Source: Naegleria gruberi
Taxonomy: Eukaryota
Assembly: GCA_000004985.1 (NCBI GenBank)
Contig: GG738911.1
Strand: one strand, 5' to 3'
DNA: 64,000 nucleotides
The notes below the pieces were generated by a model, which saw only the letters and a list, made by a program, of their open reading frames with translations, was not told where the DNA came from and did no database searches. Positions 31,559 through 51,740 of this stretch are shown here, one piece after another. Position 1 is the first letter of the stretch; each line of letters begins with the position of its first letter. The position numbers were made by a program, and so were the translations under genes.

Positions 31559-31810
31559 ATGCTGATGATGAATTCCTCATCACCCACTACTTCCTCACAA
31601 CTCGTAGTAGATGATCATGAGGGATCGACACCAAATTCCAGCACTGAAATTAACTTCCTCTCACCTACCACTCTCTCGGATGGTCCATTTACTTCATCTA
31701 CATTAACTTCCCCAACAAATTCTCTATCTATTCTTTCCAGTCAGCAACTAACTTCACAACAATTAATTGCCTCATCAAATTCTTCAACCTCTGATCAACA
31801 ACATATCTGA
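31559..31810 (+). CDS. family member 2, S/T-rich N-terminal segment (frame 1)
   Basis: ATG at 31559, 'MLMMNSSSPTTSSQLVVDDHEGSTPNSSTEINFLSPTTLSDGPFTSSTLTSPTN...'. Overlaps the next ORF by 44 nt in the +1 frame. Confidence 0.5.
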   Translation: MLMMNSSSPTTSSQLVVDDHEGSTPNSSTEINFLSPTTLSDGPFTSSTLTSPTNSLSILSSQQLTSQQLIASSNSSTSDQQHI

Positions 31811-33843: not shown

Positions 33844-35439
33844 ATGGAATCACCTCTGAAAAAGAAGAAACTCAATCACGCTGCGGAAGAAAAAGAGAAA
33901 AATATTGATTCCGATGATGATGATCAGAATAATGATGAAAATGTAAAAATAATATTATCTAATGATGATGGTTTAATGGAAAGTATTCTATTGAAGAAGA
34001 AACTTGGAGGAAACAAAATTAGAACTCTCAATACAAAGATCACACTCTCCGAGGTTTCTATTGATTGTCTTGCAAATGATGATGTGCAGATTCGAATATG
34101 TCACCAGAAAAAGTTATTGTTTCTTAGTTGTTGCAAAAATATTCACATTTACAATTATGAGGAAGATTTGAAACTTGTTAGGAAAATTAATGTGAAATTT
34201 GATAGTTTTGAAGTCGATAGTGTTGGTGAACACTTGTTTGTAATCTCAATTAGTGGCATGTCAAAATATAGACTTGATGACATGTCAGAATTGTGGACTT
34301 TTAGAGAAAACGTGTATTGTTTTACTATTAGTGAATCCAGAAATGAAATTTTCATTCCCAATAATTTGGAAGTTAACGTTTTGGATATGAATGATGGCTC
34401 AGTCAAGAGGAAAATTCCATTTCAATTAAGCCAAGGTTATTGCGCAGATATTGTCTATGATGAAGAGGAGGAAACCATTTATCTATCAGTTAATGTTGAT
34501 AGTTTTGAAGTTTATGACTTCAAATTATTAATAGTTTCAGAAAAAACTAGAACACAAACTGAACTTGTTTGTGATCAGAGATTTAGCCATCTCTTCTTCT
34601 ATGAAAGATATCTTGTATATATCACAGTAGTGGAAGTAGTCTATCTTTTTGAAAAGAAAACTAATAATTTATTATTAACATTTAAATTGGATAAAATTAG
34701 ATATTACAATTCCTATTTTGATAGATTAACCAATACTTTAATATATCTAAATAGACAGAAAATATGTTTTAAAAAGTTACACATTGAGGAAAATATTATT
34801 GAAACTCCACTCAACAAGGAGATTTGTCTTGCACTTGAGAAATTTGGAGGCAAATTACCATCTTTCATTCCAAAAGTTCAAGTTTTAAACGAATTTGTTA
34901 TTCCAGAATGTTTACAATATCTATGGAGAGTTGAGTTTGAAAATTCAAAGTTTTGGTATATTGAGAAAGAGATTGCAAAATATGTTTCTTTTCGAGATTG
35001 TAACTTTGGATACATTACTGAAAGATGGATGGGAAAAGATGATATTCTCTTAATTGGAGATTGTCCAACAAGTTCAGAATTGGAAAATAACAAGTTTGCC
35101 CTCTGTATCTTTGTAAAGAAAGAGGAAGTTTCCAAGGTATCAAATGGCGACTTTTCAATTTATTTGCGTTACTTTGATGAATCTTCTTATGATTATATTA
35201 TTCAGAGTTTCAAATTTTCAGAATTTGTTTCAAAATTGAGTGTTGCAGAACTTGTAAAATTAGAAGACTTTTCAGAATATTTGATTCATTTTGAAAAGAN
35301 NNNNNNNNNNNNNNNNNNNNNNNNNNNNNNNNNNNNNNNNNNNNNNNNNNNNNNNNNNNNNNNNNNNNTAAGAAAGATTAACAATATACTGTTACAGATG
35401 GTTTGGCATCAAATAAAGAAAAATTGGAATGAAAATTGA
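33844..35439 (+). CDS. clustered lineage-specific family, copy 1 (interrupted by the assembly gap)
   Basis: Starts 'MESPLKKKKLNH...DENVKII...LKKKLGGNKI...FEVDSVGEHLF...LDMNDGSVKRKI...IIETPLNKEICLALEKFGGKLPSFIPKVQ...VIPECLQYLWRVEFENSKFWYIEKEI...DFSIYLRY'. These motifs are shared with 46395..48092, 48179..49867 and 49911..51740. The N-run falls in the C-terminal part, so the C-terminus is unreliable. Confidence 0.6.
   Translation: MESPLKKKKLNHAAEEKEKNIDSDDDDQNNDENVKIILSNDDGLMESILLKKKLGGNKIRTLNTKITLSEVSIDCLANDDVQIRICHQKKLLFLSCCKNIHIYNYEEDLKLVRKINVKFDSFEVDSVGEHLFVISISGMSKYRLDDMSELWTFRENVYCFTISESRNEIFIPNNLEVNVLDMNDGSVKRKIPFQLSQGYCADIVYDEEEETIYLSVNVDSFEVYDFKLLIVSEKTRTQTELVCDQRFSHLFFYERYLVYITVVEVVYLFEKKTNNLLLTFKLDKIRYYNSYFDRLTNTLIYLNRQKICFKKLHIEENIIETPLNKEICLALEKFGGKLPSFIPKVQVLNEFVIPECLQYLWRVEFENSKFWYIEKEIAKYVSFRDCNFGYITERWMGKDDILLIGDCPTSSELENNKFALCIFVKKEEVSKVSNGDFSIYLRYFDESSYDYIIQSFKFSEFVSKLSVAELVKLEDFSEYLIHFEKXXXXXXXXXXXXXXXXXXXXXXXXRKINNILLQMVWHQIKKNWNEN
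35300..35368. other. assembly gap (69 N)
   Basis: A run of n characters. This is a draft scaffold join of unknown true length. Confidence 0.95.
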
Positions 35440-35957
35440 TTGTAAATTATTTATTGAAGATTATTGAAAGAACATGAGTGAATTTCAATTTTGAATTATA
35501 CATACGTTGAATTGAAAGAACTACGTTTATTGAAAGAGCAATGTGAAATCAATGTGAAATTAACGCTATGATAAATGGAGCTGAGAGTCATGTTACTAAC
35601 TTATGCTTCATAATTATGTGTTCTTGGAATAAACTATCATTGTTGCTCCACAAGGCTTTGCATAGGTGTCATATTTAGATATTACTGATGTCAAATTCAT
35701 AGAAACCTTGCTTTCAGTATCAGAAACGCTTTGCAAATTACTAGTTGGAGTTGACACATGAAACTAGAAACTGTAATATTAATGAGAAGATTTGTATGAA
35801 CTTGTTGGTAAATCGGTTGAAGAATAACGATCTTACAGTATTAAATATAAATAATACCCAGACAATTAATTGAAAAGGTAAGCTGTATTTAAGGCTTATT
35901 TATTTTTATTTCAAGAACCCCTTACTGACAGAGTTCAGTAAATTTTTATAAGTGTAA

Positions 35958-36010
35958 GGGACCATGGTCTAGTGGTATGATTCTCGCTTTGGGTGCGAGA
36001 GGCCGTGGGA
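35958..36010 (+). pseudogene. tRNA-Pro(TGG)-like 5' two-thirds fragment (acceptor 5' strand, D-arm, anticodon arm), lacking T-arm and 3' acceptor
   Basis: GGGACCATGGTCTAGTGGTATGATTCTCGCTTTGGGTGCGAGAGGCCGTGGG. Anticodon stem CTCGC/GCGAG, loop TTTGGGT. Nearly identical to eukaryotic tRNA-Pro up to the variable loop, then runs into a minus-strand Glu-like sequence. Confidence 0.5.
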
Positions 36011-36061
36011 ATCGATCTCCTGGGTGAGAGCCAGGTATCTTAGCCATTGGACCACACGGGT
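36011..36061 (-). pseudogene. tRNA-Glu(CTC)-like 5' fragment, truncated in the T-arm; copy of the intact gene at 12683..12754
   Basis: Minus-strand read ACCCGTGTGGTCCAATGGCTAAGATACCTGGCTCTCACCCAGGAGATCGATTCCCAC. About 46 nt identical to the intact tRNA-Glu, but the first base is T->A and the 5' half of the T-stem is deleted. Confidence 0.5.
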
Positions 36062-37400
36062 TAGACCAGTCTTTCACAAATATTTATTATTTTGGTTGTC
36101 CTTAAATAGATAAAAAGACTACAACACCACAGGTTCCCAAGTTGTCTCCAACCTCAGTACTGATGCTCGACGATGCTTAACTTCTCAAATCGGACGGGAT
36201 GAGGTGTATTCATCGTGATATGGCCGTAGCCATTCATTTAATGAAAATATGGACCATAAATCTAATATCAAACGTATTGCTAACTTTGGCAATAAAACAA
36301 CATAAGTAGTCAAAAATTCTATCATATCTTTTATACCATCTTAAAGATTTTCAACTATTCTAATTGCATGCACACGGCAATATTCATCATTCAGTGTTAC
36401 TCATTCAATAACAGTAAATAGCACCCAAATGGATACGAATCAAGAAAAACAATCCTACTGTAATGCATGTATTCCGTTACAATAGGTAAAATATCTAATA
36501 TTTCATTCTTGTCATTGTAAAATTAACTGTAATATGATTGTGATCTTGTAAGGTTGTTTTATGGGTAATAATCATGAAAAACTCCACATCTCCTATTATT
36601 GTAACCAACGTTTTATTCTCCCAGTTCCAAATCAAGAACTGTTTTATTAAGTCACTCACTTATTGACATTTAACATGTAGCAATTCAAAGAACACCAAAC
36701 TCAATTCCAATTCCTCTCCATTCCATTCCTTAATAACACACCTCAATAATTTCAATTTTTTATTGTAAATCTTTGTAAACTATTGAAAGATTCTCAAGCA
36801 AGGAATCTTTCCATACTGTAATTCAAAAGTAAAAACGCGAAACAGCAAAATTTCCAAAAGCAACAACGCGAATCACTATAAACAAGTTCACTCCCTTTGT
36901 TGAATGTGTTAAAATCGCCATATTTCAAAGACCCTGGACCAAAATCAAAGGATGGTTTGTTTGGCAATTCAACCAAACGCGAAAATCATTGCATGAAATG
37001 GAATCACCTTAATGGAGAGGAGTGTAGTGATTTACTGTTGAAATTTTTGGTAATTTTTCACATGAATTGAAGGGAATGAAAGGAGTGCAGTTGAAGAATT
37101 GAAGAAAAAGCCAACAATTTTCCAAGAAATGTCAATCAGTAAAAACAATCCTTACTTTTTCAGACACCTGTGCTACCAAATTTCATTTTCACTTTTCCTT
37201 TTCATCAAGTAATTGTGCTTTCCCGCTCCAGAAACCCAATCACACCTTCAAGCCAATCCATCCTGAAAATCTAAAGAGGAAACGGAAGAAGAACTCCGAT
37301 AAAAAAATGGGCGCTAAAAATAATGAGCCTTCACTTTGCTTGTCAAGACCTCATAAAAAACATCTTTTGATTTTTTTTAGCCTTTAAAAAAAATACAAAT

Positions 37401-37532
37401 ATGCAATTTAAATACGTTATTGCCGCCCTTATGGTGATGGTATGCCTCTTGGCTCCAACCATGATGGTTAAAGCTGAAAAGTCAGTTATGGGATGTGAAA
37501 TCTGTGAATGGTTGGTTGCTACCGCCGAAGGT
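37401..37532 (+). CDS. multi-saposin (SapB domain x5) amoebapore/saposin-like secreted protein, exon 1
   Basis: 'MQFKYVIAALMVMVCLLAPTMMVKA' is a signal peptide, then 'EKSVMGCEICEWLVATAEG'. Donor GGT|GTAGGT. Confidence 0.75.
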
Positions 37533-37649
37533 GTAGGTATTTTCTTGTAATTTTTATGATCTCTAATGATGATGCTGATGAAATATTGTTGTATTATTAA
37601 TATCTTGGTGATGATGATGATTTTATTATAATGCGCAAAATATCTTCAG

Positions 37650-37908
37650 TTGGTTAACAAGACCAAGCCACAAATCGAACAAGAATTGTTGCAAGTCTGC
37701 TCCAAGTTGGGTCCATATGAACAACTCTGTGACCAAATGGTCTTGATGGAATTGCCAGATATTATCGATGCTATTATTGCTAAGGAACCACCAGCAATTG
37801 TCTGTGCTCAAGTTAAGATCTGTGCCAACTCTTCTGCTCCAGCTATTGCTACTGCTCCAAAGGACTCTGGTATCTGTAACATGTGTCAATTGGTTGTTAC
37901 TCAAGTTG
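37650..37908 (+). CDS. saposin-like protein, exon 2 (intron 1 = 37533..37649, 117 nt)
   Basis: Acceptor cttcag|TTG. Encodes 'LVNKTKPQIEQELLQVCSKLGPYEQLCDQMVLMELPDIIDAIIAKEPPAIVCAQVKIC...GICNMCQLVVTQV'. Donor G|GTATGT, phase 1. Confidence 0.75.
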
Positions 37909-38072
37909 GTATGTTTTATAACCGTTAATTGTTGTTTTTGTGTATTAACTAATTAATTCTTTTAATATTTGATAATGATGAAAATAATTATCACATGATT
38001 ATTCATGATTATTATCCAAACACTTGATGCGCTATTTGACGTTTTAAAAATCGATATCATTCACAATAATAG

Positions 38073-38806
38073 AAAACTGGGTTGAAAGCAATGATACTAT
38101 CATGACTTTGGAAAAGAAGTTGGAACAAGTCTGTAATGTTATTCCAGGACAATACTCCACTCTCTGTACTTATGCTGTTGAACAATACTTGCCAACTTTC
38201 ATTCACCAAGTTGAACAACAATACTCTCCATTGGTCATTTGTCAAGATGTTAGTTTGTGCTCAAAGCAAGAAGCTCCAAAGGTTGTTGCTCCACAACCAG
38301 CTGCTGCTGAATTGTGCCCAATCTGTAAGGCTGCTGTCGGTTTCTTGAAGTCCAAGATCTCCACTGTTGATGTCCCAACCATCAAGAAGCAATTGGAATT
38401 CGCTTGTACTTTCTTCCAAGTTGAAGATTGTCAACAATTGGTTGATAAGGCTGCTGATATTGCTCAAGCCATCCAAACTGAAGATGCTAATACCATCTGT
38501 TCATCTGTTGTTGATGTCTGCCCAAAGGAACAAGTTACCTTGAAGGCTCAATGGAATCCATTCAAGAAGTTCCTCGAAGCTAAGAATGCCAAGTATTGTC
38601 CAACTTGTTTGGCCATTACCCAATATTTGGAAAATGCCATCACTTCTGATGTTGCTGTTGCTGAACTCATCAAGATTGCTGACCTCGGTTGTGCCAAGTT
38701 GGGTTCTTTGGAATCTCTCTGTACCAAGTTTGTTCCTCTTGCTGTTGACGAATTGAAGAAGTCATCCTCGAAAAGGTTACCCCACAAAAGGTCTGTTCCA
38801 CTTTGA
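38073..38806 (+). CDS. saposin-like protein, exon 3, first frame (intron 2 = 37909..38072, 164 nt)
   Basis: Acceptor aatag|AA gives 'QVENWVESNDTIMTLEKKLEQVCNVIPG...', with the 6-Cys SapB spacing repeated. The frame closes at 38806 inside the fourth SapB domain. Confidence 0.7.
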
Positions 38807-39156
38807 AGATGTGTGATGCTGCTGATAAGATGTCTCTTGCTGCTCCAGTTATTGCTGCTAAGGTTGAAGATTCCTCAATGTGTCTTGGTTGTGAATATGT
38901 TATTGGTGTTGCTGACAACTGGTTGATTGCTAACAATACTCAACAATCTGTTGAATCCACTTTGGATATGGTCTGTAACGACTTTGTTCCATCTGTCTAC
39001 AAGTCTCAATGTGTTGCTTTGGTTGCTCAATACACTCCACAACTCGTCCAACTCTTCGAAGCTAAGGTCTTTAACCCACAAACTGTCTGTAAGGCTATTG
39101 GTGTCTGTACCTCTGCTAAGAGACAAGCTATCAACAAGCAAATCCAAATGAACTAA
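38803..39156 (+). CDS. saposin-like protein, continuation after a frame break (last 1.5 SapB domains)
   Basis: 'MCDAADK...MCLGCEYVIGVADNWLIANNTQQSVESTLDMVCNDFVPSVYKSQCVALVAQYTPQLVQLFEAKVFNPQTVCKAIGVC'. The Cys spacing continues only if the frame changes between ~38750 and 38806. Confidence 0.7.
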   Translation: MKMCDAADKMSLAAPVIAAKVEDSSMCLGCEYVIGVADNWLIANNTQQSVESTLDMVCNDFVPSVYKSQCVALVAQYTPQLVQLFEAKVFNPQTVCKAIGVCTSAKRQAINKQIQMN

Positions 39157-39234
39157 ATGTTTAGTTTTTAATTTATATTTTCATTCTATTTCTTCTTGAA
39201 GTGCATTTTACAAAATGAACAAATTGAAAAAAAT

Positions 39235-40590
39235 ATGAACAAATCTCAAGATATTCTTCATAAACAACATTCTGTGGTGGCGAATTTATTACAGAAAGCC
39301 TATCACCAGAGTAATAACAGCATTGGAGGAGGAGAATCGGAGAAGAATTGTTTTAAAAAGGTTTTAATGAATCATCATGATGAGAATTTCAAAAAGACTT
39401 GTGGAAATGATCAACAAGCAATATTTGAATTTAATTATGAATTTTATTTGGAAAGTGATGGTGTAATTAATGCAGTCTATTTTATATGGATCAAGAGGAA
39501 AGAAAATGATTCTTCATCTTTTCAATTTGACGATTGTTCATTCATTTACAATGAAAAATGTCAAGATAAAAGTGAAATGGAGCTAGTTCTTAAGGTGAAC
39601 ACTTTACATGATTCGTGGGCAAGGTCCAAAACAATGAATGAAGTTTCCATCATGCAATTTTTAAAGAGTGAAAACTTTCCAGTTCCTCAAATATTTGATT
39701 ACGAGCTGTCGTGTGAAAATCTGCTTGGATTTGAATATATTCTCATGGAGAAGGTGAAGGGAGTTCCATTGAGACAGCTCTGCACTCGAATGGATGTTGA
39801 TGAGAGGAGTTTTTGGATTGATGAGATTGGAAAATACTTGAAGGAAATTTACAAAATGAATTTTGTGATTGATTCAGTTTCTTTTGATTTATCAAATGAT
39901 GAAATGGATAGGAGTGAATATATTGTAAAGGAAGTGGATAATACTGATGCAGGTAAATTGTGGCTTGGTGGAAGTTTTCACAGTTTACAAAGGAGAGGCG
40001 ATGCAATTCATGTTAAAATTGGCCCCTATGTTGATAGTAAGAGAGGTCCATTTGAATCCATTGTTGATTATTGGAAATCTTTGGTAGAGTTTAGATATCC
40101 AATATTTGAAACTCTGGAAGAGGGTCGATTTGCTAAATACATTCCACTCATGAAAAAGTATGTGGATAAATATTTTGGAAATGAGTCACCTCTCAGAGAG
40201 GAGTGTAAAATGGAGAATTGCAAGTTATTCCTCTGTCATGGTGATTTATCAACAAGTAATGTCATTGTCTGTGCAGAAACGAAAACAATCAAAGCAATTA
40301 TTGATTTTGAATGGGCCAAGCTCTCTGTCATTGAGGAAGACATGAGAAATATATTGGAAGATTGGTGTCTTGGATTGCACTCACTCGAAGGTCATTTAAA
40401 AACATTAATGAAAGATCAAACATCCTCATTCTACGAGAGGGTTCTCTTCCATTTCAAATTTATTGACTTGTTGAGTTGTGTGGAAAATTACAAACAATTT
40501 CACTCACCTGAACAACAAGAGAACGATGCAAAGGAATTTATTGAGATGATCATTGATGAATTGGATGAGGTATTGGAGCAAAGATTATAG
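39235..40590 (+). CDS. protein-kinase-like fold, aminoglycoside-phosphotransferase/choline-kinase (APH) family protein
   Basis: 'LFLCHGDLSTSNVIVCAETKTIKAIIDFEWA' matches the HGDxxxxN...DxE Brenner motifs of APH/ChoK-type kinases. Confidence 0.65.
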   Translation: MNKSQDILHKQHSVVANLLQKAYHQSNNSIGGGESEKNCFKKVLMNHHDENFKKTCGNDQQAIFEFNYEFYLESDGVINAVYFIWIKRKENDSSSFQFDDCSFIYNEKCQDKSEMELVLKVNTLHDSWARSKTMNEVSIMQFLKSENFPVPQIFDYELSCENLLGFEYILMEKVKGVPLRQLCTRMDVDERSFWIDEIGKYLKEIYKMNFVIDSVSFDLSNDEMDRSEYIVKEVDNTDAGKLWLGGSFHSLQRRGDAIHVKIGPYVDSKRGPFESIVDYWKSLVEFRYPIFETLEEGRFAKYIPLMKKYVDKYFGNESPLREECKMENCKLFLCHGDLSTSNVIVCAETKTIKAIIDFEWAKLSVIEEDMRNILEDWCLGLHSLEGHLKTLMKDQTSSFYERVLFHFKFIDLLSCVENYKQFHSPEQQENDAKEFIEMIIDELDEVLEQRL

Positions 40591-40598
40591 AAATTTAT

Positions 40599-43500
40599 TT
40601 ATCGGTGATTTTTTGGGGCAGTCTTAGTTGGTGATGTTACTTTTCCTAACTGTGTAATTGGTGAGAGTGTTTCTGATAAATCTTCACAACTGACTCGTTT
40701 GATTGGAGCTGATTTAATTCTAGAACGCTCTCTTGCAGGTGATTTTGATTTGGAATGGGAAGTATGAGGAATTGGAGGAATGATTTTCTTAGGAGATTCA
40801 GTCTTTTCAGGCTTTTGATAGGCAAATACTTGGCTGTGATCGAGCTTGGAAAGTTCCTTTTCCATGAGATGAATTTTCTCTTCTTCCTTCCTTGCTCTCA
40901 TGTCGTTCTTTTCTCTTTCTTTTTGGTAGAGAGTTTTCTTAGGTATTTCAATGACTGGGAATAAATCCATATCAGATTGATTTGATGAATTCGTTGCTGT
41001 TGTATTTGAAGAACCAGAGTCAATGAATTTTTGAGTGACAGATTTCCTCTTGGTCTTTTTCTTTTCCTTCTTTGGTGAATTGTCGATTTCTATAGGTTGT
41101 TGAACAGGTTGAGGAACCTCCTTCTTGTAGTCCTCTTCCAACTTCCTTCTCACCTTCTTTTGCTTGCTGCTCGCATCCTTTTTCTTTCTATCTGGACTCT
41201 CCAACTTTTGTGGATCTTGTGGGTCGTACTCAGTTTTCATAGAACTCAGTCCACTAAAACCATCTTCCTCAAAATCATCATCGAAATAGTTGGTTATTTC
41301 TTCATCCTCAAAATCAGAAGAATCACTATGATTACTGTTTTGTTGTTGCTTTTCTGTTACAGGTTTCAAATTGATTTCTCCATTACTGAAGGAACGTGAT
41401 TGCCACATTGAATTCTTTCTTAAAAAGATGGAAATATCCTTCTGACTATTGTATCCCTTCTTTGGTTTTACAACATCCAATGGTTTCTTTTCCTTCATTT
41501 CTTGAGAGAGTTCAGTATGAATTTTTGGCCCACCATGTGGAGGCTCATCAAAACTCTCATCATACTTATGTTCTGGTTCAGGAGGGAAAGGAGAAGCAGA
41601 ACCAGAGGATGGAGTGAATGCATTGATACAATCATCGTCAGATGGACTGCAAACAGCAGGTGAGCTCACTGAATCTGTTCCTTCATCATCACTCTCATCT
41701 GTTTGTAGAATCCATGGATCATTTAATAGATCATCTACTGTTGCTCTCAGATTGGGATCTCTGATAAAGCATTTGTACAAGAACTTTTTACACCCTTCAG
41801 AAACAAACTCTGGGAAGGATGGCATCTCTGTCGATGCAGCAATATGGAACATGACTGCAGCTGCTGTTGTAAATTCAGTGAATGGTGGTTTACCAGTATA
41901 CATTTCAACAACTGTACAACCAATACTCCAAATATCCGCAGATCTACCATGACCAGTTTGCATGATAACTTCTGGAGCCATAAAGTGAGGAGTTCCCAGT
42001 AAACTCTTAAATTCAGTTGAGAGAGTCATGATATCTTGAATTTTCCTTGAAGCACCAAAGTCTGCCAATTTAATGGCTCCTTCCACACTCACTAGAATGT
42101 TTGCACCTTTAATATCACGATGGACAATTCTATTCTCATGCAAATATTTCAAACCTTTAAGAATTTGAGTGGTGTAGTGACGAACAACATCCTCTGACAA
42201 TCTGCCATATCTTCTCAGTAAGGAGGAAACAGAACCACCTGGAACATATTCCAAGAAGATGTTAAGGGTTGTTCCTGTCACTTCTGCTCCATAATATTGT
42301 ACAATATTTTCATGACAAAGTTCCTTCATCAAGTTAATTTCTCTTTGGAGACTTTCTAATTTCAATTCCAAAATGTCCTCAGGTACACTGTCGAAAGTAC
42401 ATTCCTTGATTGCAAAGAATTTACCATCGTCCAAATTATATCCCAAAAATACTTTTCCACTTGCTCCTGAACCAATAAAATCTCCCTTCTTGTAATTCTT
42501 GATTGTTTTTTCCTTCTTTTTAGCTGACTTGGATCCCTTTCTTGTTGAGCTAGAAGCTGTGCTAACTTTTGAGGATGGCTCGCTAGAATTTGATCTTTTG
42601 GAGGAGGCACTACTAACTTGAGAAACGAGAGTAGAACTAGTATCATTATTGGTCGTTGTTGTTGCTGTGGTGACGTTTGTTGAGACTGTCGATACTGCAG
42701 AGGAACCTGTTGATTCTTCAACTGTATTTGTGGCTTGTTTGGGAATTCTTGGACTATTGTGAGATTGGCTCGGATGTTCTTCTTTTCTTTGGATTGGAGG
42801 TAAATGTTTGTTTTGAGAAACATTAACCTTAGGTGTTGTTTCCTTTCCATATTTTGCGTCATTAACTGGCGTGTCATTGACCATGATTGCTGTTGGTGTT
42901 GGTGCTCTGGATATTTTACTCGAGTGTGATGGTGTGTTGACTTTCTTATTCTTGAAATACAAGTGATGAGATGGAGAAGGTTGAGAACTGAATGTATGAA
43001 TTGACATTGGCTGTGGAGTATTCTGCTGACTATTTACATTGGCAGAACCCTTATCGGAAGAAGCTGATGGAAGAAAGAAGACGTTTGAAACTCCAGTCAC
43101 CAATGAATTGTTTAAACTACTATTATTTGATGACGAAGAAAAGTTTGAACTTTGAGAATTGATCGGTGATGGTACTCTAAATGATGCTTGCTGGTTTTTA
43201 GCTGGTGAAGTGTTGAAATCGGTATGTGGTCCAACAAAATTATTAGATTGAGTAAGATCACTCTTATTGATACTAAGATTTTGTGGCCTTTTCTTTGCTA
43301 GATTAGATTGCCTATTGCTGTTGTTTCCTACAGAAAGGTGGTTACTAGAGGAAGCAGCGGCTGGATTTTTGGTAGGTGTTGATGAGAGAGAGTTTTGAGA
43401 GATAACACTGAGGTGTTTGATTGGTGAAGAAGAACCTGTGGAGGTTGGTGTATCTCTTGACTGTGTTGAGTAGCAGTGAAGAGCAACATCAATACATTTG

Positions 43501-43640
43501 ATGGCAGAAGATTGATGAGTAAGGACATGATGAAAATGATGATAATGGTTAAATTTGTGTTCAACATTGTGATAATATTCAATACATTTAAATTTGTGCA
43601 AATATTCAGTGTTGAAGTGTTTGGGTATTAAATAGATCAT
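40599..43640 (-). CDS. STE11/MEKK-like serine/threonine protein kinase with long low-complexity N- and C-terminal extensions
   Basis: 1013 aa with ATG. Kinase core 'IGSGASGKVFLG...AIKE...HENIVQYYG...HRDIKGANILV...KLADFGAS...GTPHFMAPEV...DIWSIGCTVVEMYTGKPPF'. Confidence 0.85.
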   Translation of the reverse strand: MIYLIPKHFNTEYLHKFKCIEYYHNVEHKFNHYHHFHHVLTHQSSAIKCIDVALHCYSTQSRDTPTSTGSSSPIKHLSVISQNSLSSTPTKNPAAASSSNHLSVGNNSNRQSNLAKKRPQNLSINKSDLTQSNNFVGPHTDFNTSPAKNQQASFRVPSPINSQSSNFSSSSNNSSLNNSLVTGVSNVFFLPSASSDKGSANVNSQQNTPQPMSIHTFSSQPSPSHHLYFKNKKVNTPSHSSKISRAPTPTAIMVNDTPVNDAKYGKETTPKVNVSQNKHLPPIQRKEEHPSQSHNSPRIPKQATNTVEESTGSSAVSTVSTNVTTATTTTNNDTSSTLVSQVSSASSKRSNSSEPSSKVSTASSSTRKGSKSAKKKEKTIKNYKKGDFIGSGASGKVFLGYNLDDGKFFAIKECTFDSVPEDILELKLESLQREINLMKELCHENIVQYYGAEVTGTTLNIFLEYVPGGSVSSLLRRYGRLSEDVVRHYTTQILKGLKYLHENRIVHRDIKGANILVSVEGAIKLADFGASRKIQDIMTLSTEFKSLLGTPHFMAPEVIMQTGHGRSADIWSIGCTVVEMYTGKPPFTEFTTAAAVMFHIAASTEMPSFPEFVSEGCKKFLYKCFIRDPNLRATVDDLLNDPWILQTDESDDEGTDSVSSPAVCSPSDDDCINAFTPSSGSASPFPPEPEHKYDESFDEPPHGGPKIHTELSQEMKEKKPLDVVKPKKGYNSQKDISIFLRKNSMWQSRSFSNGEINLKPVTEKQQQNSNHSDSSDFEDEEITNYFDDDFEEDGFSGLSSMKTEYDPQDPQKLESPDRKKKDASSKQKKVRRKLEEDYKKEVPQPVQQPIEIDNSPKKEKKKTKRKSVTQKFIDSGSSNTTATNSSNQSDMDLFPVIEIPKKTLYQKEREKNDMRARKEEEKIHLMEKELSKLDHSQVFAYQKPEKTESPKKIIPPIPHTSHSKSKSPARERSRIKSAPIKRVSCEDLSETLSPITQLGKVTSPTKTAPKNHR

Positions 43641-43756
43641 TATTAAGGGTATTAAAAGTAACGAAAATTAATCAGTTAATTTGGTCCATTCATAATTTGA
43701 ATCATAATATTATCAATTATAATTAATATTATTATTAATGATGAATATAATAATAA

Positions 43757-44512
43757 TTAAATATTGTTATATTTCAAAAAACAAACCTGTTCCAAAGAAT
43801 CAATACTTTCCATAATTTCATCACCCTCATAATCAGTCATGGGTGAACGTCCTACTTTATGTGGTGTTAATCCCTGCTCATCAGGCGTTAAATAGCCATT
43901 TGCATTATAATTATCCAAATCTTCAATATCTTCCTCAATATCAGTCGTTCCGGTACAACTCGTATCGACAGAATACCTCATATCATCATTACTAAACGAA
44001 CCTTTCGACTTCATGCCGCCTCCTGGTATAATAACTTTCAGATTTTGTTGTTGTTGTTGTTGTTGAGGTGTTTGCAAATAGCTGGCGAGAGAGAGGCTTG
44101 ATGGAACTTGTTGCTGCTTAATAAAAACTCCCCCAAAGTTTTGATTATTTTTTAGGGTAGAAGAAAAATTTTGTTGATTTCCCGCCAAAGAAGATGATGA
44201 TGAAGAAGACTGTGAGGAACAACTGCTTGGAGTTTGTAGGTGGATATTCGGAGGAGGATTTGAGTAATAGTTATTATTGTTATTGCTGTTATTATTATAA
44301 TTAGAGTTATTGTTGCTGTTGTTATTGAGGGAAGCTAAGGAAACGAGACTTCCTAATTGTTGCTGTTGTTGAATGTAATAATTATTTGATGATGATGATG
44401 ATGAATTTATATTATTATTATTATTATTATTATTCATATTATTATTTGAAAATATTATTAGTGAGGTTGATAGTGGCTGGAGGAGTAATAAGCAATGGCA
44501 AATTATTGCCAT
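43757..44512 (-). CDS. N/Q/S-rich low-complexity protein with acidic C-terminus (segment 2)
   Basis: Poly-N tracts and a C-terminal 'DIEEDIEDLDNYNANGYLTPDEQGLTPHKVGRSPMTDYEGDEIMESIDSLEQ'. Confidence 0.45.
   Translation of the reverse strand: MAIICHCLLLLQPLSTSLIIFSNNNMNNNNNNNNINSSSSSSNNYYIQQQQQLGSLVSLASLNNNSNNNSNYNNNSNNNNNYYSNPPPNIHLQTPSSCSSQSSSSSSSLAGNQQNFSSTLKNNQNFGGVFIKQQQVPSSLSLASYLQTPQQQQQQQNLKVIIPGGGMKSKGSFSNDDMRYSVDTSCTGTTDIEEDIEDLDNYNANGYLTPDEQGLTPHKVGRSPMTDYEGDEIMESIDSLEQVCFLKYNNI
44411..44434. repeat. (ATT)8 microsatellite (AAT on coding strand; poly-Asn)
   Basis: Sequence attattattattattattattatt. Confidence 0.7.
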
Positions 44513-44732
44513 TATTATAATTATTATTATTATAATTATTAGTGTTTCCTCCTCCGAACATCATATTGTTTGTATTATTGGAAAGGTTTGAATAATTATT
44601 GTTGGGATTTCGTTCGCCAACGAGAATTATATTATTGGTGGCATTGGTCGTGCTGGTCATGTAATTGTTGTTATTGGTTTGTATGGGAGTGAGTCTCTTT
44701 TTAAAGAGTTGAGCTCGATTGTTATTGTTCAT
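44442..44732 (-). CDS. N-rich low-complexity ORF (segment 1), probably the N-terminus of 43757..44512 with a +1 frame break in the overlap
   Basis: The two ORFs overlap by 71 nt within an (AAT)n-rich region. Confidence 0.4.
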   Translation of the reverse strand: MNNNNRAQLFKKRLTPIQTNNNNYMTSTTNATNNIILVGERNPNNNYSNLSNNTNNMMFGGGNTNNYNNNNYNNGNNLPLLITPPATINLTNNIFK

Positions 44733-45062
44733 TTCTTCTAGTTTCGACGAAAGTATTCGAAAGATGAAGATGTGTAAGTGCGTTAAAGGTGTAGTACTTC
44801 AAGAATATATTAATGGGAGATGAAGGGTGTGAGCATGTTGCAATTTTTTTTAAAGTTGTAAATGACATTTGGCGGGCTGCTTGATTTTTATTCGAAAGTT
44901 TGTGAGAATTTGTCAACCCTTGTATTTGCTAGATCTTGATTCTAAAAACATAGTAATGGTTACTTAAGAAGAAGTAGCCGATACTTTCCCTACTAAGGTT
45001 GGAGATATTCAAAGTTTCATCTACATTCTTGCATCTCAATTATGCTCATTATTCAACATTTC

Positions 45063-46016
45063 TCAATATTCATCTGCATATTCTGTCTCATCAAATAAAT
45101 TTCCTTCACTTTCAACAGTGAATTTTCCCAATTCATGAATTGCCTGGACCATATCATACGAAATATTATTTCCTCTAATAGAAAGAACTTTCAAATTTTC
45201 CAATCCACAAAGGTCTTCAGCACCATCATCTCCAATTTCATTACTATCCATATAGAGGTGAGTTAATTGTTTCATTTGGCTAATGTGTTTGGCACCATCT
45301 GCATGTAAATAATTCACACAAAGGTTGAGACATGTGACTTTTTCCAATTGACTTATTGATTTTGCTCCTTCTTCTCTAATATTATTACTGCAACAATAGA
45401 GACATGTTAAATTGGTCAATTGGCTAATTGACTTGGCTCCTTCATTTCCAAAATCGCAACCACCAATATCAAGTTCAGTTAATTGACTCAATCCACTTAT
45501 ATTCTCGATTCCTTCATTTCCAATCCTGTTGGAACCTACATTAAGAATTATCAATTGTTTCATTTCTTTAAATGGAATCATTCCATTAGATGTGATTTGA
45601 TTATACGAAATATTGAGGTTGGTTAATTGTTTCAACTGACATATAATTTTGGCTCCTTCATCTCCTATATTATTAAGACTGATATCAAGGTGGGTTAGTC
45701 TTGTCATGTTGCTAATAGAATGAGCTCCCTCTACACCAACACTGTTATTTTTAATATTGAGACTGGTCAACTGTTTCATTGTACTAATAGATTTGGCACC
45801 AGTTGGACCAATTTCATTATTTTCAACTCCTAATGAAGTTAATTGTTTAAATTGACTTATTTTATGAGCACTTTCATCACCGAGTTGGTTACATTCAAGA
45901 GAAAGTTCAGTCAACTGGCTCATCATTTCAAGAATGGAAAACCACCTTTCATCATTCACAATACAATATCCGAAATTAACCTTTCGGAAATTATTTAAAA
46001 ATTCAGATTGGATCAT
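45063..46016 (-). CDS. leucine-rich-repeat protein, RNI-like (ribonuclease-inhibitor type LRR)
   Basis: ~24-28-aa repeats such as 'LTSLGVENNEIGPTGAKSISTMKQLTSLNIKNNSVGVEGAHSISNMTRLTHLDISLNNIGDEGAKII'. First ATG at 46016; the tool ORF starts at TTG 46025. Confidence 0.75.
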   Translation of the reverse strand: MIQSEFLNNFRKVNFGYCIVNDERWFSILEMMSQLTELSLECNQLGDESAHKISQFKQLTSLGVENNEIGPTGAKSISTMKQLTSLNIKNNSVGVEGAHSISNMTRLTHLDISLNNIGDEGAKIICQLKQLTNLNISYNQITSNGMIPFKEMKQLIILNVGSNRIGNEGIENISGLSQLTELDIGGCDFGNEGAKSISQLTNLTCLYCCSNNIREEGAKSISQLEKVTCLNLCVNYLHADGAKHISQMKQLTHLYMDSNEIGDDGAEDLCGLENLKVLSIRGNNISYDMVQAIHELGKFTVESEGNLFDETEYADEY

Positions 46017-46270
46017 TACATTCAACCTTTCCGAATCGAGTTTACTTTTAATTTCAATATCAAGTTTCGAATGGTTTTTAATAACATTTAAAAATTGTTT
46101 GGAAATTAACGATCAATTCAAGATAATAAATTTCCAATCTTGTTGATTATCCACAAAGGACAAGATTTCCCAACAAATGTCATCGGGAATTGTGGACCCC
46201 ATCATATGATTTCAAATTTGTTATTTTTTTAAAAATAATAAATTCAAAAGTTCCCAAAGTTTAAAAGGAA

Positions 46271-46343
46271 TGCTGACGGACGGGATCGAACCGGCGACCA
46301 ATGGCTTATTAGACCAACGCTCTACCGACTGAGCTACGCCAGC
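46271..46343 (-). tRNA. tRNA-Ile (anticodon AAT), with one mismatch each in the anticodon and T stems
   Basis: Minus-strand read GCTGGCGTAGCTCAGTCGGTAGAGCGTTGGTCTAATAAGCCATTGGTCGCCGGTTCGATCCCGTCCGTCAGCA. Acceptor GCTGGCG/CGTCAGC, loop CTAATAA. T-run downstream. Confidence 0.65.
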
Positions 46344-46394
46344 TTCACATGGATATAAAGAAAAACATTAAGAATACACACACAACGTATATCT

Positions 46395-48092
46395 TTAGAT
46401 TTTTATAAGGCAATGCTCACTACATAATTCAGATAAAGTAATTAAATCAATCTTTTTGAAATCCATATTATCAAAAGTAATTGTTGAATTTTGGAAATGT
46501 TTCATTAAAGCTTCATATGTTATAGTTCTTCGATTAATAATGATTTGATAATGTTCCAATAGAATAGATTGATCAATTTCTCTCGTTTCTGGATTGATAA
46601 TTCTTTTCAATAATAATTCTTCATAAATCATTTCAAAGTTAATCAAATATTCGTATCTATCATTCACTTTGATATGCTCTGCAACTCTCAATTTAGAAAT
46701 AAACTCTGAGAGGTTAAAACTCTTAATTATATATTCATCTTTTGATTCGTTTTGATAGCGTAAATAAATTGAAAAATCATCATTTGAAATTTCTGATTTC
46801 TTGACAACCAGACAGTTTGAAAACTTGCCTTGATCTGAACCTCCAATCAAGAATGCCCCATTTTCTTCCATCCATGTAATATCAAGTGAACAGTCACATC
46901 CAAAAGAAAAGTATTTTGCAATGTTTTCATCAATATACCAAAATTTTGAATTTTCAAACTTAACACTCAATAGATATTGTAAACATTCTGGAATAACATA
47001 TTCGTTATCATTTTGAACCTTTGGAATGAAAGATGGTAATTTGCCTCCCAATTTCTCAAGTGCAAGACAAATCTCCTTGTTGAGTGGTCTTTCAATGATA
47101 TTTTCCTCAATGTCGTTGTGAAATGTTGTTAAATTAAATGTATTATGATAATATTGTTGAAATACATTAGTTGAGTTATCAAAATATGAAATACCACTAT
47201 ATCCAAGGCCATCTTTAAATTTAAACAATAAATCATTTGTTTTCTTATCATAAACAAATACTTCTCCAAATGTTGTTGAACAAATAAAGTAGTTTCGATA
47301 GGACAGAAAGAAACCAACTTGGTCCTCAACCCAGATACTAGACCTTGTGTCATTTTTTTCATCAATAATTACAACAATATGCTCTGAAGTATAAGTACAG
47401 TTCTCATCAATAATGGACACATAAACATGGTCCTCTTTTTCATTATAGGTAATGAACGATAACAAAGGTGAGTGGTAGAAGCTATATTCTCTTAGAATTG
47501 TCCTTTTGGTTGATCCATCATTCATATCCAAAATACTAACTTTCAAGTCAGTAGAGTTACACCAAGCAGTGTACAATTCATTCTTAGATTCACAAATTGT
47601 AAAACAACAACTATTATACCCAGACAATGAAACAGTCCACACTAATGATAAATCATCGAGTCTCTTTTTCCTCAATTCCTCATCACTAAATTCATACAAA
47701 TGCTCTCCAACACTGTCCACTTCAAAATAGTTATTACTATTTAGTTTAATTTTTCGAATCAAACTCGAACTCTTCATATCATAAATACGAATATGTTTTT
47801 CACCTCTACAATAAAGAAGAAGCCACTCTTTATGTGGACACACTCTTACTCGCTCCAAAGATTGATAGGGAGATAAATCTGGTACAGTAAACTCCGTAAG
47901 ACAAGTCCTTGTTTGAGAAATTAATTTAATTTTGTTTCCTCCTAGTTGTTTCTTCAACATTAAACTTTCCAACCTATCATCAAATATTATTTTTACATTT
48001 TCGTCATTGTGATGATTATTTTCTTCCTTCACAATGCTGCCAAAGCAGACATCATCATGGGGAATCTTTTTCTTCTTGCGAAGTGGTTCCAT
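46395..48092 (-). CDS. clustered lineage-specific family, copy 2
   Basis: ATG at 48092, 'MEPLRKKKKIPHDD...DENVKII...LKKQLGGNKI...FEVDSVGEHLY...LDMNDGSTKR...IIERPLNKEICLALEKLGGKLPSFIPKVQ...VIPECLQYLLSVKFENSKFWYIDENI...DFSIYLRY...YEYLINFEMI'. The tool ORF extends to 48155 via TTG. Confidence 0.65.
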   Translation of the reverse strand: MEPLRKKKKIPHDDVCFGSIVKEENNHHNDENVKIIFDDRLESLMLKKQLGGNKIKLISQTRTCLTEFTVPDLSPYQSLERVRVCPHKEWLLLYCRGEKHIRIYDMKSSSLIRKIKLNSNNYFEVDSVGEHLYEFSDEELRKKRLDDLSLVWTVSLSGYNSCCFTICESKNELYTAWCNSTDLKVSILDMNDGSTKRTILREYSFYHSPLLSFITYNEKEDHVYVSIIDENCTYTSEHIVVIIDEKNDTRSSIWVEDQVGFFLSYRNYFICSTTFGEVFVYDKKTNDLLFKFKDGLGYSGISYFDNSTNVFQQYYHNTFNLTTFHNDIEENIIERPLNKEICLALEKLGGKLPSFIPKVQNDNEYVIPECLQYLLSVKFENSKFWYIDENIAKYFSFGCDCSLDITWMEENGAFLIGGSDQGKFSNCLVVKKSEISNDDFSIYLRYQNESKDEYIIKSFNLSEFISKLRVAEHIKVNDRYEYLINFEMIYEELLLKRIINPETREIDQSILLEHYQIIINRRTITYEALMKHFQNSTITFDNMDFKKIDLITLSELCSEHCLIKI

Positions 48093-48178
48093 TTTTTTTG
48101 GTTGTTGTTGCAGTTTAAAATTGAAAAGCGCGGGAATATTCAATATGAGGAACAATTTTTAAAAAAAAAATAAAAAAA
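48093..48178. promoter_or_regulatory. short (~86 bp) divergent intergenic region shared by the head-to-head paralogues at 46395..48092 (-) and 48179..49867 (+)
   Basis: Inferred only from the divergent gene arrangement. Contains A/T homopolymers. No motif was verified. Confidence 0.3.
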
Positions 48179-49867
48179 ATGGAATCACCACTGAAGAAAA
48201 CCAAATTCAATCACCAGAAGTCTTGTGTTGTTCATCATGGGGAGGAGGAAGAGGCTGATCATCATACAATCATTTTATCGGATCATCTTTCGAATAATTT
48301 TTTAAAGCAACAATTAAGAGGAAAGACAATACGAAACTTTCAATTCCATATTTACTCTGAAAATAATGATTTGATGAATCCACAGTTTGATGAATTTGGG
48401 AGGGAAAATATATTTAGTGCTACGAGATGTGCGGAATTGGATTTATCATTTGTTGCTTTTCGAAATTTTAAAACTAATTCGATTGCAATATTCGAAAGGA
48501 ATCAATTATTGAAGATAATTAAAATGAATGATGATTTTGAATCATTTCAAGTGGATAGTACGGGAGAATTTGCTTTCTTATTGAATTCAAAAAGTGAATT
48601 GATTAAGGTGAAACTAGACGAATCTGCAAAATCTATTTGGAAAGTAAATGGTGTTTTACAATTTTGTTTGTGTAATTCAAAGAGTGAAATATACACAGTA
48701 AGCAAGTACGATAACAAAAATGTGACAGTAAGAATTTGGGAAGATTCTAATGGAATACTGAAGCGTGAATTAGTAATTAAAGATTGCAAAAAGTTGTCTG
48801 ATTTTGATTTGATAAATATGAAACGAGATGATAAGAAACGTTTACTATTTCTATTCAGAAATGATCTGAGAACAAGGTTAAACAGTAAGATCGTTTTGTA
48901 TGATGAGATAAGAAATCAGTCAATTAAGATGAAAATGACTGAAATATCTATGGTAGATTTCACAAAAGAAGGCTACTTGCTTTTTTATTCAGGCGTAGAT
49001 CTAGCATATATTTATGATGATAAGAGTGGACTTGTACTTTTGGAAATGTTATTGCCCTGTAGTTTCAATTCAGTTTCCTATTTTGAAACAATTTCGAATA
49101 CTCTCTGCCGCTTTGGTATTTGTCCAGTAGAAAAGGATAGGATTGAAATTTTATCAAATGTTGTTAACATGCCACTTAAAGAAGAAACATGCCAATCTTT
49201 ACAGAGGCTAGGATGCCAACTACCAATAAGCATTCAAGTCGATTTTGAATGGCTTGGCTTTTTCATTCCTGATTATTTACAAATGTTACTAACAACCAAC
49301 TATGGAAATATGCAATTTTGGTATCAAGATGATGAGCTAGCTGCACGATTCAAATTTATCACTACTCCACATTCTCTCAATTTTGAAGATCATGTCGTTA
49401 TAAGTGATTCAGATGATAACTTGACTGTGTCTGTAAAGAAATCAGACCTTTCAATTCATAATAATTTCAGTGGTGATTTTCCCATTTACTTGTCTTTTAT
49501 TGATTCTAAAAAGGGAATTTCGATCAAGAGTTTTACATTATCAGAATTTATTCCAAAATTGCTAATTGTAGAATGTGGTAAAAAAGTATTATCATTTACT
49601 ATTTGCTTTGCAAAGATATTTGAAGAATTATTAGAGATTGGAATAATCGATTCGAAAAGAAACATTAATCCTACCACTCTATTAGAAAGATATCAAGAAA
49701 TAATTTGTAGTTCCATGCAGGAAAATATGAATATTAATTTATTGGGAGAATACTTTGGACATTCAACTATTCGTCTTGACGAAAGAATATACAAAAAGAT
49801 GGATCTGATTGTATTGGCCAAATATTGTCCAAAGTATTTAAAATTATTTGGACAAATCATTTTTTGA
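48179..49867 (+). CDS. clustered lineage-specific family, copy 3
   Basis: 'MESPLKKTKFNH...' plus the shared central and C-terminal motifs in diverged form: 'MPLKEETCQSLQRLGCQLP', 'FIPDYLQMLLTTNYGNMQFWYQDDEL', 'DFPIYLSF'. Confidence 0.65.
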   Translation: MESPLKKTKFNHQKSCVVHHGEEEEADHHTIILSDHLSNNFLKQQLRGKTIRNFQFHIYSENNDLMNPQFDEFGRENIFSATRCAELDLSFVAFRNFKTNSIAIFERNQLLKIIKMNDDFESFQVDSTGEFAFLLNSKSELIKVKLDESAKSIWKVNGVLQFCLCNSKSEIYTVSKYDNKNVTVRIWEDSNGILKRELVIKDCKKLSDFDLINMKRDDKKRLLFLFRNDLRTRLNSKIVLYDEIRNQSIKMKMTEISMVDFTKEGYLLFYSGVDLAYIYDDKSGLVLLEMLLPCSFNSVSYFETISNTLCRFGICPVEKDRIEILSNVVNMPLKEETCQSLQRLGCQLPISIQVDFEWLGFFIPDYLQMLLTTNYGNMQFWYQDDELAARFKFITTPHSLNFEDHVVISDSDDNLTVSVKKSDLSIHNNFSGDFPIYLSFIDSKKGISIKSFTLSEFIPKLLIVECGKKVLSFTICFAKIFEELLEIGIIDSKRNINPTTLLERYQEIICSSMQENMNINLLGEYFGHSTIRLDERIYKKMDLIVLAKYCPKYLKLFGQIIF

Positions 49868-49910
49868 AAGAGTACATCAAAATTATTTATTTCCTTAATT
49901 TCCTAAAAAA

Positions 49911-51740
49911 ATGCCATCACAATACAATCAAAATCCCTTTGCTAATTATCCTAATGCTATCTTGGGGACTAGGGAAAATAATTCTCACGACGAAGAGCGC
50001 GTTAAATTAATACTTCTTGAAGGTCTTGATACAAATACTAAATTAATAAGGGAAAATAATTCATTAAGCAGAAAACTTTCTGAAGGACTGGAAGCGAAAC
50101 TTACAGGAAAGAAGGTAAGAAAGGTTAAAGGAATGTTTATCAACTCGGAAAGGTTGGTTGAATATGTAAACAAACAGGTATTGTGTATGGATACATGTCA
50201 TGCTTTGAATTTATTATTTGTTGGGTTGTATAGTTTGGGATTTTATATGATTTCCATATTCGAAAATGGTGTATTGAAGAGAACGATGGAAATTTCTGAT
50301 CGTTTTGTTTCGTTCCAAGTAGATGAACAAGCAGAGTTTATTTATCTATTAAGCAATGGTAATTGTGGAAGGTTAACGAAAATGAAACTTGACGATACTT
50401 CAATAGTTTGGCATTTTAATAGCATTAACAGTTTTTGCTTGGCTGGTAATGAGATTTATGTTGGATTCTCATGCAAAACATACTTGACAGTCCATATATT
50501 AGATACTATCGATGGTTCACAAAAAAAGCAATTCACAGTTGATAAGGGAATGAATACATTCATCTTGAAACAAATGAAATATTATGAAAGAAAGCTCTAT
50601 CTTCTATTTCACAAATGTGGAACAAGGAATATTGTTCATCACTCAAATCTTTTTATGATTGTTGATTTAATAACCGAAAAGACACAACCGATTAAGCTAG
50701 AGAAGACACTTTCGACTATTGGAATTACTACAGGAGGTCTTTTGATTTTTTTTGGTTTATGGGATGTAGACGTGTATGATATTAATAGCAGGTTGCTTCT
50801 TGGTATTAATTATTCTCAATTTCAGTCGAAATGTTTTTTGTCTGCTTGTGCCAATCACTTTGATAAACATTCGAATAGATACTACATTCATCAATTTGAA
50901 GAGCAAAAGAATCAAAAAGATGAAATTATTCAAATTAGTTCAAGCATAGTATCTGAACAATTGGAAATAAGTATGAATGTTGTAGATGCGCCACTGAATT
51001 CTAAAATATGGCAAGCAATTGAAAAATTGGGAGGTCAATTACCACAATATATTCCACAAGATAAGATTAGTTACAGAAATTTAAACTTTGAAGATTCACA
51101 ATATTCCATCTATCCAGACTGTTTAGAATATTTATTAAGGGTTGATTTTGGACAAGTTGGCTTTTGGTATAAAGATAAAGAAATTACCAAGAATTTCACA
51201 TTTGAAAAGGAAGCTTATGTAGATTGGGTACGAAAGAAAAGAGATAATGAACTTTTTTTTGCTACACCATTCTTTCACAATCAAGGAATGTTTCTTTATG
51301 TAAAGAAAGAAGAGCTTTCTAATAATGATGATTTTCCAGTACATCTCCTCTATCAGACTAACGATGAAAATAACCAACATGAAGAAAAGGTAATGAGTTT
51401 GCTTGAATTCCTTTCAAGATTGAGTCTTGCTGAACATGTCATTTTAAATACTGGTTTCGAATATTTCATCAACTTTGAAATGATTTGTAAGGAATTATTG
51501 GAAAAGAACATAATTGATCCAGAAACAAGACAATTAGATATCGAATATTTAATCAAAAATTTTGAGGGAGCTAATATGTATTTGAAAATTTATTTCAACA
51601 ATTCAAAATTCCGTTTTGGAAATTCCATTTATGAAAAGCTTTTTTTGATTCTAACAGCAAACGATTGTTCAAAAAATTGCCTTATTGAAATGGAATCAGA
51701 AGTTGATTCAGATGATGATGATGAATATTGTATTTTGTAA
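49911..51740 (+). CDS. clustered lineage-specific family, copy 4 (tandem, 43 bp after copy 3)
   Basis: '...VDAPLNSKIWQAIEKLGGQLPQYIPQD...IYPDCLEYLLRVDFGQVGFWYKDKEI...DFPVHLLY...FEYFINFEMI'. Acidic C-terminal tail. Confidence 0.65.
   Translation: MPSQYNQNPFANYPNAILGTRENNSHDEERVKLILLEGLDTNTKLIRENNSLSRKLSEGLEAKLTGKKVRKVKGMFINSERLVEYVNKQVLCMDTCHALNLLFVGLYSLGFYMISIFENGVLKRTMEISDRFVSFQVDEQAEFIYLLSNGNCGRLTKMKLDDTSIVWHFNSINSFCLAGNEIYVGFSCKTYLTVHILDTIDGSQKKQFTVDKGMNTFILKQMKYYERKLYLLFHKCGTRNIVHHSNLFMIVDLITEKTQPIKLEKTLSTIGITTGGLLIFFGLWDVDVYDINSRLLLGINYSQFQSKCFLSACANHFDKHSNRYYIHQFEEQKNQKDEIIQISSSIVSEQLEISMNVVDAPLNSKIWQAIEKLGGQLPQYIPQDKISYRNLNFEDSQYSIYPDCLEYLLRVDFGQVGFWYKDKEITKNFTFEKEAYVDWVRKKRDNELFFATPFFHNQGMFLYVKKEELSNNDDFPVHLLYQTNDENNQHEEKVMSLLEFLSRLSLAEHVILNTGFEYFINFEMICKELLEKNIIDPETRQLDIEYLIKNFEGANMYLKIYFNNSKFRFGNSIYEKLFLILTANDCSKNCLIEMESEVDSDDDDEYCIL

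Follow-up and report, generated by a model that had tools for sequence, protein, structure and literature searches.

Four clustered Naegleria gruberi genes belong to a family predicted to combine a beta-propeller with a SUKH-like domain

What do four related genes that lie close together in the genome of Naegleria gruberi encode, when all four are deposited only as a "predicted protein"? The genes occupy positions 33,844 to 51,740 of the stretch of DNA that we analyzed (the window), 64,000 nucleotides of contig GG738911.1 (GenBank assembly GCA_000004985.1). We found that their products would be built, from N terminus to C terminus, of a basic motif, a 6- to 7-bladed YVTN/WD40-like propeller, a very divergent domain of the SUKH fold (Syd/US22/Knr4-like), and a family-specific alpha/beta tail. 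On the basis of structure models, we give a probability of roughly 0.5 to the reading that the family consists of soluble, probably nuclear, bivalent protein-binding adaptors or stoichiometric inhibitors. To our knowledge, neither the combination of propeller, SUKH-like domain, and tail nor a SUKH-type expansion in a cellular eukaryote has been described.

An initial annotation had described a cluster of four copies, and a six-frame listing of open reading frames (ORFs) together with tblastn bears this out. The four long ORFs match one another over nearly their whole length, with pairwise E values of 1e-27 to 1e-105 and 26 to 48% amino acid identity. At the local base composition, a 560-codon ORF would arise by chance with a probability of about 1e-21, and we therefore regard the four ORFs as maintained genes. 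When we compared each copy with the whole window by tblastn, we found no fifth copy. The family is four membered within the window but not in the organism, since about 12 loci are spread over 7 scaffolds of N. gruberi.

Copy 1 (NAEGRDRAFT_74118) is an ORF at 33844-35439 on the plus strand, with its family part at 33844-35299. As reported earlier, it is interrupted by an assembly gap, 69 N at 35300-35368, which falls at the boundary between the SUKH-like domain and the tail. Copy 2 (NAEGRDRAFT_74123) is complete and encodes 565 amino acids on the minus strand (46395-48092, stop codon included). In the ORF listing its frame opens upstream, at a TTG at 48155 (46395-48155), a mere extension; we placed the start at the ATG at 48092, because the deposited protein (P0001) begins there and the MESPLKK start of other copies lines up with it. 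Copy 3 (NAEGRDRAFT_74124, 562 amino acids) and copy 4 (NAEGRDRAFT_74125, 609 amino acids) follow on the plus strand at 48179-49867 and 49911-51740. Copies 2 and 3 are indeed head to head, their ATGs separated by an 86-bp spacer (48093-48178) that would presumably serve both genes as a bidirectional promoter, and copies 3 and 4 lie in tandem, with 43 bp (49868-49910) from the stop codon of the one to the ATG of the other. The motif strings that had been described as common to the four copies are literally present in copies 1 and 2, whereas in copies 3 and 4 they have diverged (as in PLKEETCQSLQRLGCQLP, FQVDSTGEFA, and LDTIDGSQKK), and copy 4 does not have the MESPLKK start.

Copy 2 was the reference sequence for the structure models. 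Its residues 1 to 75 (47868-48092, minus strand) comprise K-K-x-K at residues 6 to 9 and a low-confidence leader. The propeller extends over residues 76 to 320 (47133-47867), the SUKH-like alpha+beta domain, with the motifs PLNKEICLALEKLGGKLP, IPECLQYLL, and DFSIYL, over residues 332 to 467 (46692-47099), and the alpha/beta tail over residues 468 to 565 (46398-46691). The SUKH-like domain and tail lie at 49160-49573 and 49574-49864 in copy 3 and at 50979-51446 and 51447-51737 in copy 4. In copy 1, the SUKH-like domain begins at about 34795 on the plus strand and is preceded by the propeller.

The N-terminal half is predicted to fold as a beta-propeller. In the AlphaFold2 (AF2) model of full-length copy 2, the predicted local distance difference test score (pLDDT) is 70 to 90 over residues 80 to 290, and about 23 strands between residues 79 and 320 fall into groups of four, equivalent to about six blades. 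Foldseek searches of the PDB returned the propellers of the YVTN protein 1l0q, WDR5, COPB2, YncE, and BamB with E values of 7e-10 to 2e-8, a probability of 1.0, and template modeling scores of up to 0.58 (normalized by target). Both the predicted model and these matches describe a circular array of four-stranded antiparallel blades. The earlier proposal of a probable repeat or propeller-like region is thus supported by structure prediction and by Foldseek at an E value of about 1e-9. Several members also gave propeller matches below threshold, the best being 4.3e-5 to Beta-prop_ACSF4 and 3.9e-4 to 7_blade_YncE; no WD40 or YVTN sequence repeats were found above the curated thresholds of Pfam and NCBIfam. 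The family therefore resembles the YVTN and WD40 propellers (1l0q, YncE, WDR5, and COPB2) in its predicted closed propeller of four-stranded blades and in a recurring blade motif that can be read from the sequence, [IV]x[IV][YL]Dxxx[GN]. It differs from them in having no Pfam WD40 or YVTN match above threshold and in having about six clear blades, not seven; low-confidence N-terminal strands may close the propeller.

The domain that follows resembles SUKH domains in its predicted fold. The core of SUKH domains consists of four helices and six strands (PMC3113570, 2011). Our AF2 model of the domain (pLDDT 87) has helices at 8-16, 38-44, 74-80, and 130-135 and strands at 52-56, 61-66, 82-88, 95-100, 110-116, and 123-129. 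Read in order, the predicted elements are two helices, a beta-hairpin, a helix, a four-stranded meander, and a final helix, which is the order of the SUKH core. SUKH structures were the best structural matches of the domain model in the PDB, and the matches down to rank 18 included the type VI secretion system immunity protein Tdi1, FBXO3, Lin2918 (2icg), YobK (2prv), and yeast Knr4 (5j1b). The predicted core thus has the same elements in the same order as SUKH-1/Smi1-Knr4 and SUKH-2/Syd domains (Syd 3ffv, RhsPI 8bd1_B, 3d5p, 2pag, YobK 2prv, and Knr4 5j1b). As in SUKH-1 and SUKH-2, the N-terminal helix ends in LG-x-x-LP and the last helix carries a hydrophobic S-x-F-L-x-x-L pattern, and as in the SUKH superfamily at large, the family exists as diverged sets of multiple paralogs. 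In contrast to that superfamily, the family has no significant sequence or profile similarity to it, an insert of 8 to 20 residues between the LP turn and helix 2, an invariant DF motif of its own, and a domain joined to a beta-propeller on its N-terminal side and to a tail of 100 residues on its C-terminal side.

We found a K-K/R-x-K/R motif within the first 26 residues of 12 of the 14 full-length members; the chance expectation is 3.8%. In copy 1 it is the KKKK at 33859-33870 on the plus strand. The motif fits the classical monopartite consensus for a nuclear localization signal (NLS), and it probably acts as one. In a crude hydropathy test, the first 30 residues of the four copies had a mean Kyte-Doolittle value of -1.4 to -2.0. 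The maximum over 19 residues was at most 1.4 in three copies and 1.79 in copy 4, where it aligned with the propeller region. By hydropathy, none of the four copies has a signal peptide or a convincing transmembrane segment. Because the N termini are hydrophilic and no convincing transmembrane segment is present, we concluded that the proteins are intracellular.

The propeller and the SUKH-like module are both protein-binding scaffolds without catalytic signatures, and the evidence points to an adaptor or inhibitor and not to an enzyme or a surface recognition molecule. The two halves have diverged to different extents. Between copies, the SUKH-like region has the highest identity (33 to 67%) and the propeller the lowest (20 to 38%), in agreement with the earlier description of a conserved C-terminal module. 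SUKH domains are toxin-binding immunity proteins in bacteria and versatile adaptors in eukaryotes and DNA viruses (PMC3113570). By analogy with the SUKH domains of bacterial immunity proteins and of FBXO3/Smi1, the conserved SUKH-like and tail half would use the cleft of its split beta-sheet to hold one partner, or one partner class, that the paralogs have in common. The fast-diverging propeller would then supply a second binding specificity, one for each paralog.

Several results weigh against this reading, and most of them concern the SUKH assignment. We searched Pfam, NCBIfam, and the PDB with single proteins, with alignments of 4, 10, 16, and 17 sequences, and with a consensus, and nothing rose above threshold in sequence or profile searches for any member or family profile; the sequence-profile search of the PDB was empty. 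At E ≤ 10, no Pfam family of the SUKH clan (SMI1_KNR4 PF09346, SUKH-3, SUKH-4, SUKH_5, SUKH_6, Syd, and US22) was among the matches listed (25 of 31 families) for the 17 members, and the search of Pfam with the family consensus gave no match whatever. Foldseek, given the same domain model, returned no PDB match with an E value below 0.5, and none of the 50 matches listed was a SUKH chain. With hhalign, the probability was 1.2% against a profile of YokJ and its homologs and 0.1 to 0.8% against YokH, YokK, and a small mixed SUKH-1 profile, all of them narrow profiles that make for a weak test. Apart from the SUKH assignment, the basic motif is absent from copy 4 and from one further member (P0012). 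The neighboring genes, which encode a saposin-repeat protein, an APH-like kinase, a Ser/Thr kinase, a leucine-rich repeat (LRR) protein, a teneurin-EGF surface protein, and an AAA protein, gave no functional hint. A search of the literature found no paper on these genes or on this Naegleria family, nor any data on expression or interactions.

The SPbeta SMI1/KNR4 proteins YokH, YokJ, and YokK, which with their relatives were used to build the control profiles, matched PF09346 at 1e-11 to 1e-21. Against solved SUKH structures, however, YokK, a genuine SUKH protein, reached only an E value of 0.14. Since the control profiles were narrow and YokK itself fared no better than this, the failure at the sequence level is weak evidence against SUKH. 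Weak matches to Rab2, HEPN_AbiA, and bL9m were rejected as noise; they came from single members, lay below the cutoff, and were at odds with the fold. For the family-conserved tail of about 100 residues, no relative was detected. The resemblance to SUKH/SMI1-KNR4 that the initial annotation had offered as speculation is therefore upheld by the predicted structure and the order of the core but not by Pfam, hhalign, or Foldseek. Likewise, the structure prediction and profile comparison that it had proposed yielded a predicted propeller and SUKH-like core but no significant profile match. On balance, the structure models make it likely that the C-terminal domain has a SUKH fold, and we rate common ancestry with SUKH domains somewhat lower. 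The chief alternative is that the likeness to SUKH is confined to the predicted model and that the alpha+beta domain is unrelated or novel; the family would then be a propeller protein specific to Naegleria whose second domain is an orphan. The empty profile searches speak for this alternative and the order of the predicted core elements speaks against it; we hold it to be unlikely, though a real contender.

The DNA had been attributed to a dictyostelid, but its source is Naegleria gruberi (Discoba, Heterolobosea), and copy 2 is 100% identical to a predicted protein of that organism. When the family profile was run exhaustively with HMMER against 1.84 billion representative proteins (E ≤ 1e-3), it gave 20 matches: 13 N. 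gruberi genes, 1 weak match in N. lovaniensis, 5 metagenome proteins, and 1 spurious match in Vibrio. The Vibrio VCBS protein (P0016), matched in 12 short stretches, is repeat noise, and the name "FlhF" on one metagenome protein (P0017) is a misannotation; this protein is K/E rich and has only the SUKH-like module. A word-indexed protein search was not informative, as it recovered no more than the two closest copies, or two proteins when the C-terminal alignment was the query. Two more distant members (P0009 and P0022) are on the same 261,328-bp scaffold as the window, outside it. Diverged members (P0020 and P0021) were found on short, AT-rich environmental contigs of 31 to 38% GC (L010, ENA ERZ27315067 k141_1508888, 568-2172; L011/L012, ERR1078381). 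To judge from their sequences, these contigs indicate uncultured Naegleria-like organisms with the same family, which appears to be restricted almost wholly to Naegleria and close environmental relatives. A protein kinase gene adjoins P0020 on its contig. We considered that the genes might derive from a transposon or a virus and discarded the idea, as neither repeats nor viral relatives are present and the four ORFs are both intact and diverged.

Judged by their sequence distances, the duplicates in the window are old paralogs, tandem or dispersed. The number of synonymous substitutions per site (dS, Nei-Gojobori) among the four copies is 0.8 to 1.8, near saturation. With such values and 26 to 45% amino acid identity, the copies are old, and the earlier description "rapidly duplicating" therefore does not fit. 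The ratio of nonsynonymous to synonymous substitution across the paralogs that had been called for is about 0.5, a value without interpretive weight because dS is near saturation. Adjacency did not predict similarity, as the closest pair is copies 1 and 2, which are 11 kb apart. These two share 71% DNA identity over 685 bp (34635-35299 and 46628-47265), and this similarity ends at the gap in copy 1. It is confined to the SUKH-like half, the propeller halves being nearly devoid of DNA similarity; stronger constraint or an earlier gene conversion could account for it. The initial annotation had seen the gap as consistent with repeat-induced assembly trouble; for an assembly collapse, 71% identity beside the gap is low.

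Might the SUKH-like module instead retain its bacterial role and neutralize nuclease, deaminase, or other toxin domains? Bacterial prey or symbionts could inject such toxins, or the genes for them could be those of giant viruses or of the amoeba itself, and the approximately 12 diverged paralogs would be a eukaryotic counterpart of bacterial poly-immunity loci and of herpesviral US22 arrays. The expansion of the family is compatible with this idea, and so is the fact that Naegleria is known to have taken up immunity families from bacteria (PMC3482391). The family resembles the US22 (SUKH-5) arrays in that both are tandem, strongly diverged SUKH-type paralogs within a eukaryotic cell. US22 proteins, however, are viral and usually have tandem SUKH domains without propellers, and for our family no US22 match was among those listed from Pfam and no viral relatives were found. 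The more variable half is the propeller and not the SUKH-like module, whereas a simple arms race with toxins over the SUKH surface would predict the opposite. In contrast to bacterial SUKH genes, these genes are in a eukaryotic chromosomal setting, and no toxin-like gene adjoins them in the window. Eukaryotic gene order is not expected to say much here. Scans of viral contigs and of JGI metagenome contigs found no relatives, and SUKH homology itself is unproven by sequence. We therefore regard an immunity-like role as doubtful.

A bolder form of this idea, which we consider more doubtful again, is that Naegleria has a eukaryotic poly-immunity set, about 12 nuclear proteins with a SUKH fold and a variable propeller, directed against nucleic acid-targeting toxins from bacterial prey, endosymbionts, or giant viruses. 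Zhang et al. described the conserved eukaryotic SUKH proteins as lacking lineage-specific expansions (PMC3113570). FBXO3 and PGs2 are single copy and vertically inherited in that account, unlike this family with its approximately 12 paralogs. If the proposal were true, no earlier case would exist of immunity-type SUKH proteins expanding within one lineage of cellular eukaryotes, and the family would run counter to the published view of eukaryotic SUKH proteins as single copy and vertically inherited (PMC3113570).

It is improbable that the proteins are substrate receptors of a ubiquitin ligase, in which, by analogy with FBXO3/SKIP16 or DCAF-type WD40 receptors, the propeller or SUKH-like module would recruit nuclear substrates. 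FBXO3 and SKIP16 combine an F-box, a SUKH domain, and an ApaG domain, whereas this family has a propeller and neither an F-box nor ApaG. Pfam searches of the 17 members found no F-box, SOCS-box, BTB, or other ligase-docking domain, and leader residues 30 to 75 had no match. Least probable is the original suggestion that this is a dictyostelid family, duplicating rapidly and linked to self/non-self recognition or stress. The genes are indeed clustered and lineage restricted, but the organism is Naegleria, the duplicates are old (dS 0.8 to 1.8), and the proteins have hydrophilic N termini with an NLS-like motif and not a secretion signal, no signal peptide, and no convincing transmembrane segment.

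Three of the deposited gene models are faulty. The model of copy 1 (P0002) crosses the gap and takes its last 23 codons from within a 5S rRNA gene, so that its deposited C terminus is an annotation artifact. The gap begins right after the conserved LIHFEK, and the family tail is not recognizable in the sequence beyond it; because the gap breaks the ORF, the tail is missing or hidden. The models of copies 3 and 4 are truncated at the N terminus. That of copy 3 opens at 48524 and leaves out 115 in-frame codons (48179-48523), and that of copy 4 opens at 50133 and leaves out 74 (49911-50132); the dropped codons align with the conserved N terminus of the family.

The 5S rRNA gene is complete (36116-36231, minus strand; Rfam, 92 bits), with an associated entry at 36109-36177. 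Beside it, two overlapping tRNA-like matches on both strands (35958-36061; 22.5 and 21.3 bits) are below threshold. ARAGORN called neither, and they may be tRNA fragments or pseudogenes. The window has five tRNA genes, at 6328-6401, 12683-12754, 30912-30992, 31339-31411, and 46271-46343 (minus strand); of these, the tRNA-Ile(AAT) gene is found about 50 bp downstream of the copy 2 stop codon. Directly upstream of copy 1 is a second tandem pair of paralogs (31767-32609 and 32724-33743, both plus strand; 28% identity, E value of 4e-22). These have no Pfam match, one hydrophobic segment, and a common LERENxxKYLPYxxEW[IV]IxY motif, and they are another unannotated small family. The saposin-B-type repeat protein (37650-39156, plus strand) is spread over three adjoining ORFs (37650-37928, 38102-38806, and 38803-39156), which suggests introns or frame changes. 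ORFs at 43757-44732 (minus strand), between the kinase and LRR genes, are of low complexity and extremely rich in Asn, Gln, and Ser, with poly-N and poly-Q runs.

What the cluster means for Naegleria depends on the C-terminal domain. If its similarity to SUKH is only convergent, the genes would be an ordinary cluster of orphan paralogs. If the assignment is true, the family would represent a new architecture and an expansion of SUKH proteins in a free-living eukaryote, and it would provide a hypothesis of function, that of an adaptor or inhibitor that is probably nuclear, for about 12 unannotated Naegleria proteins.

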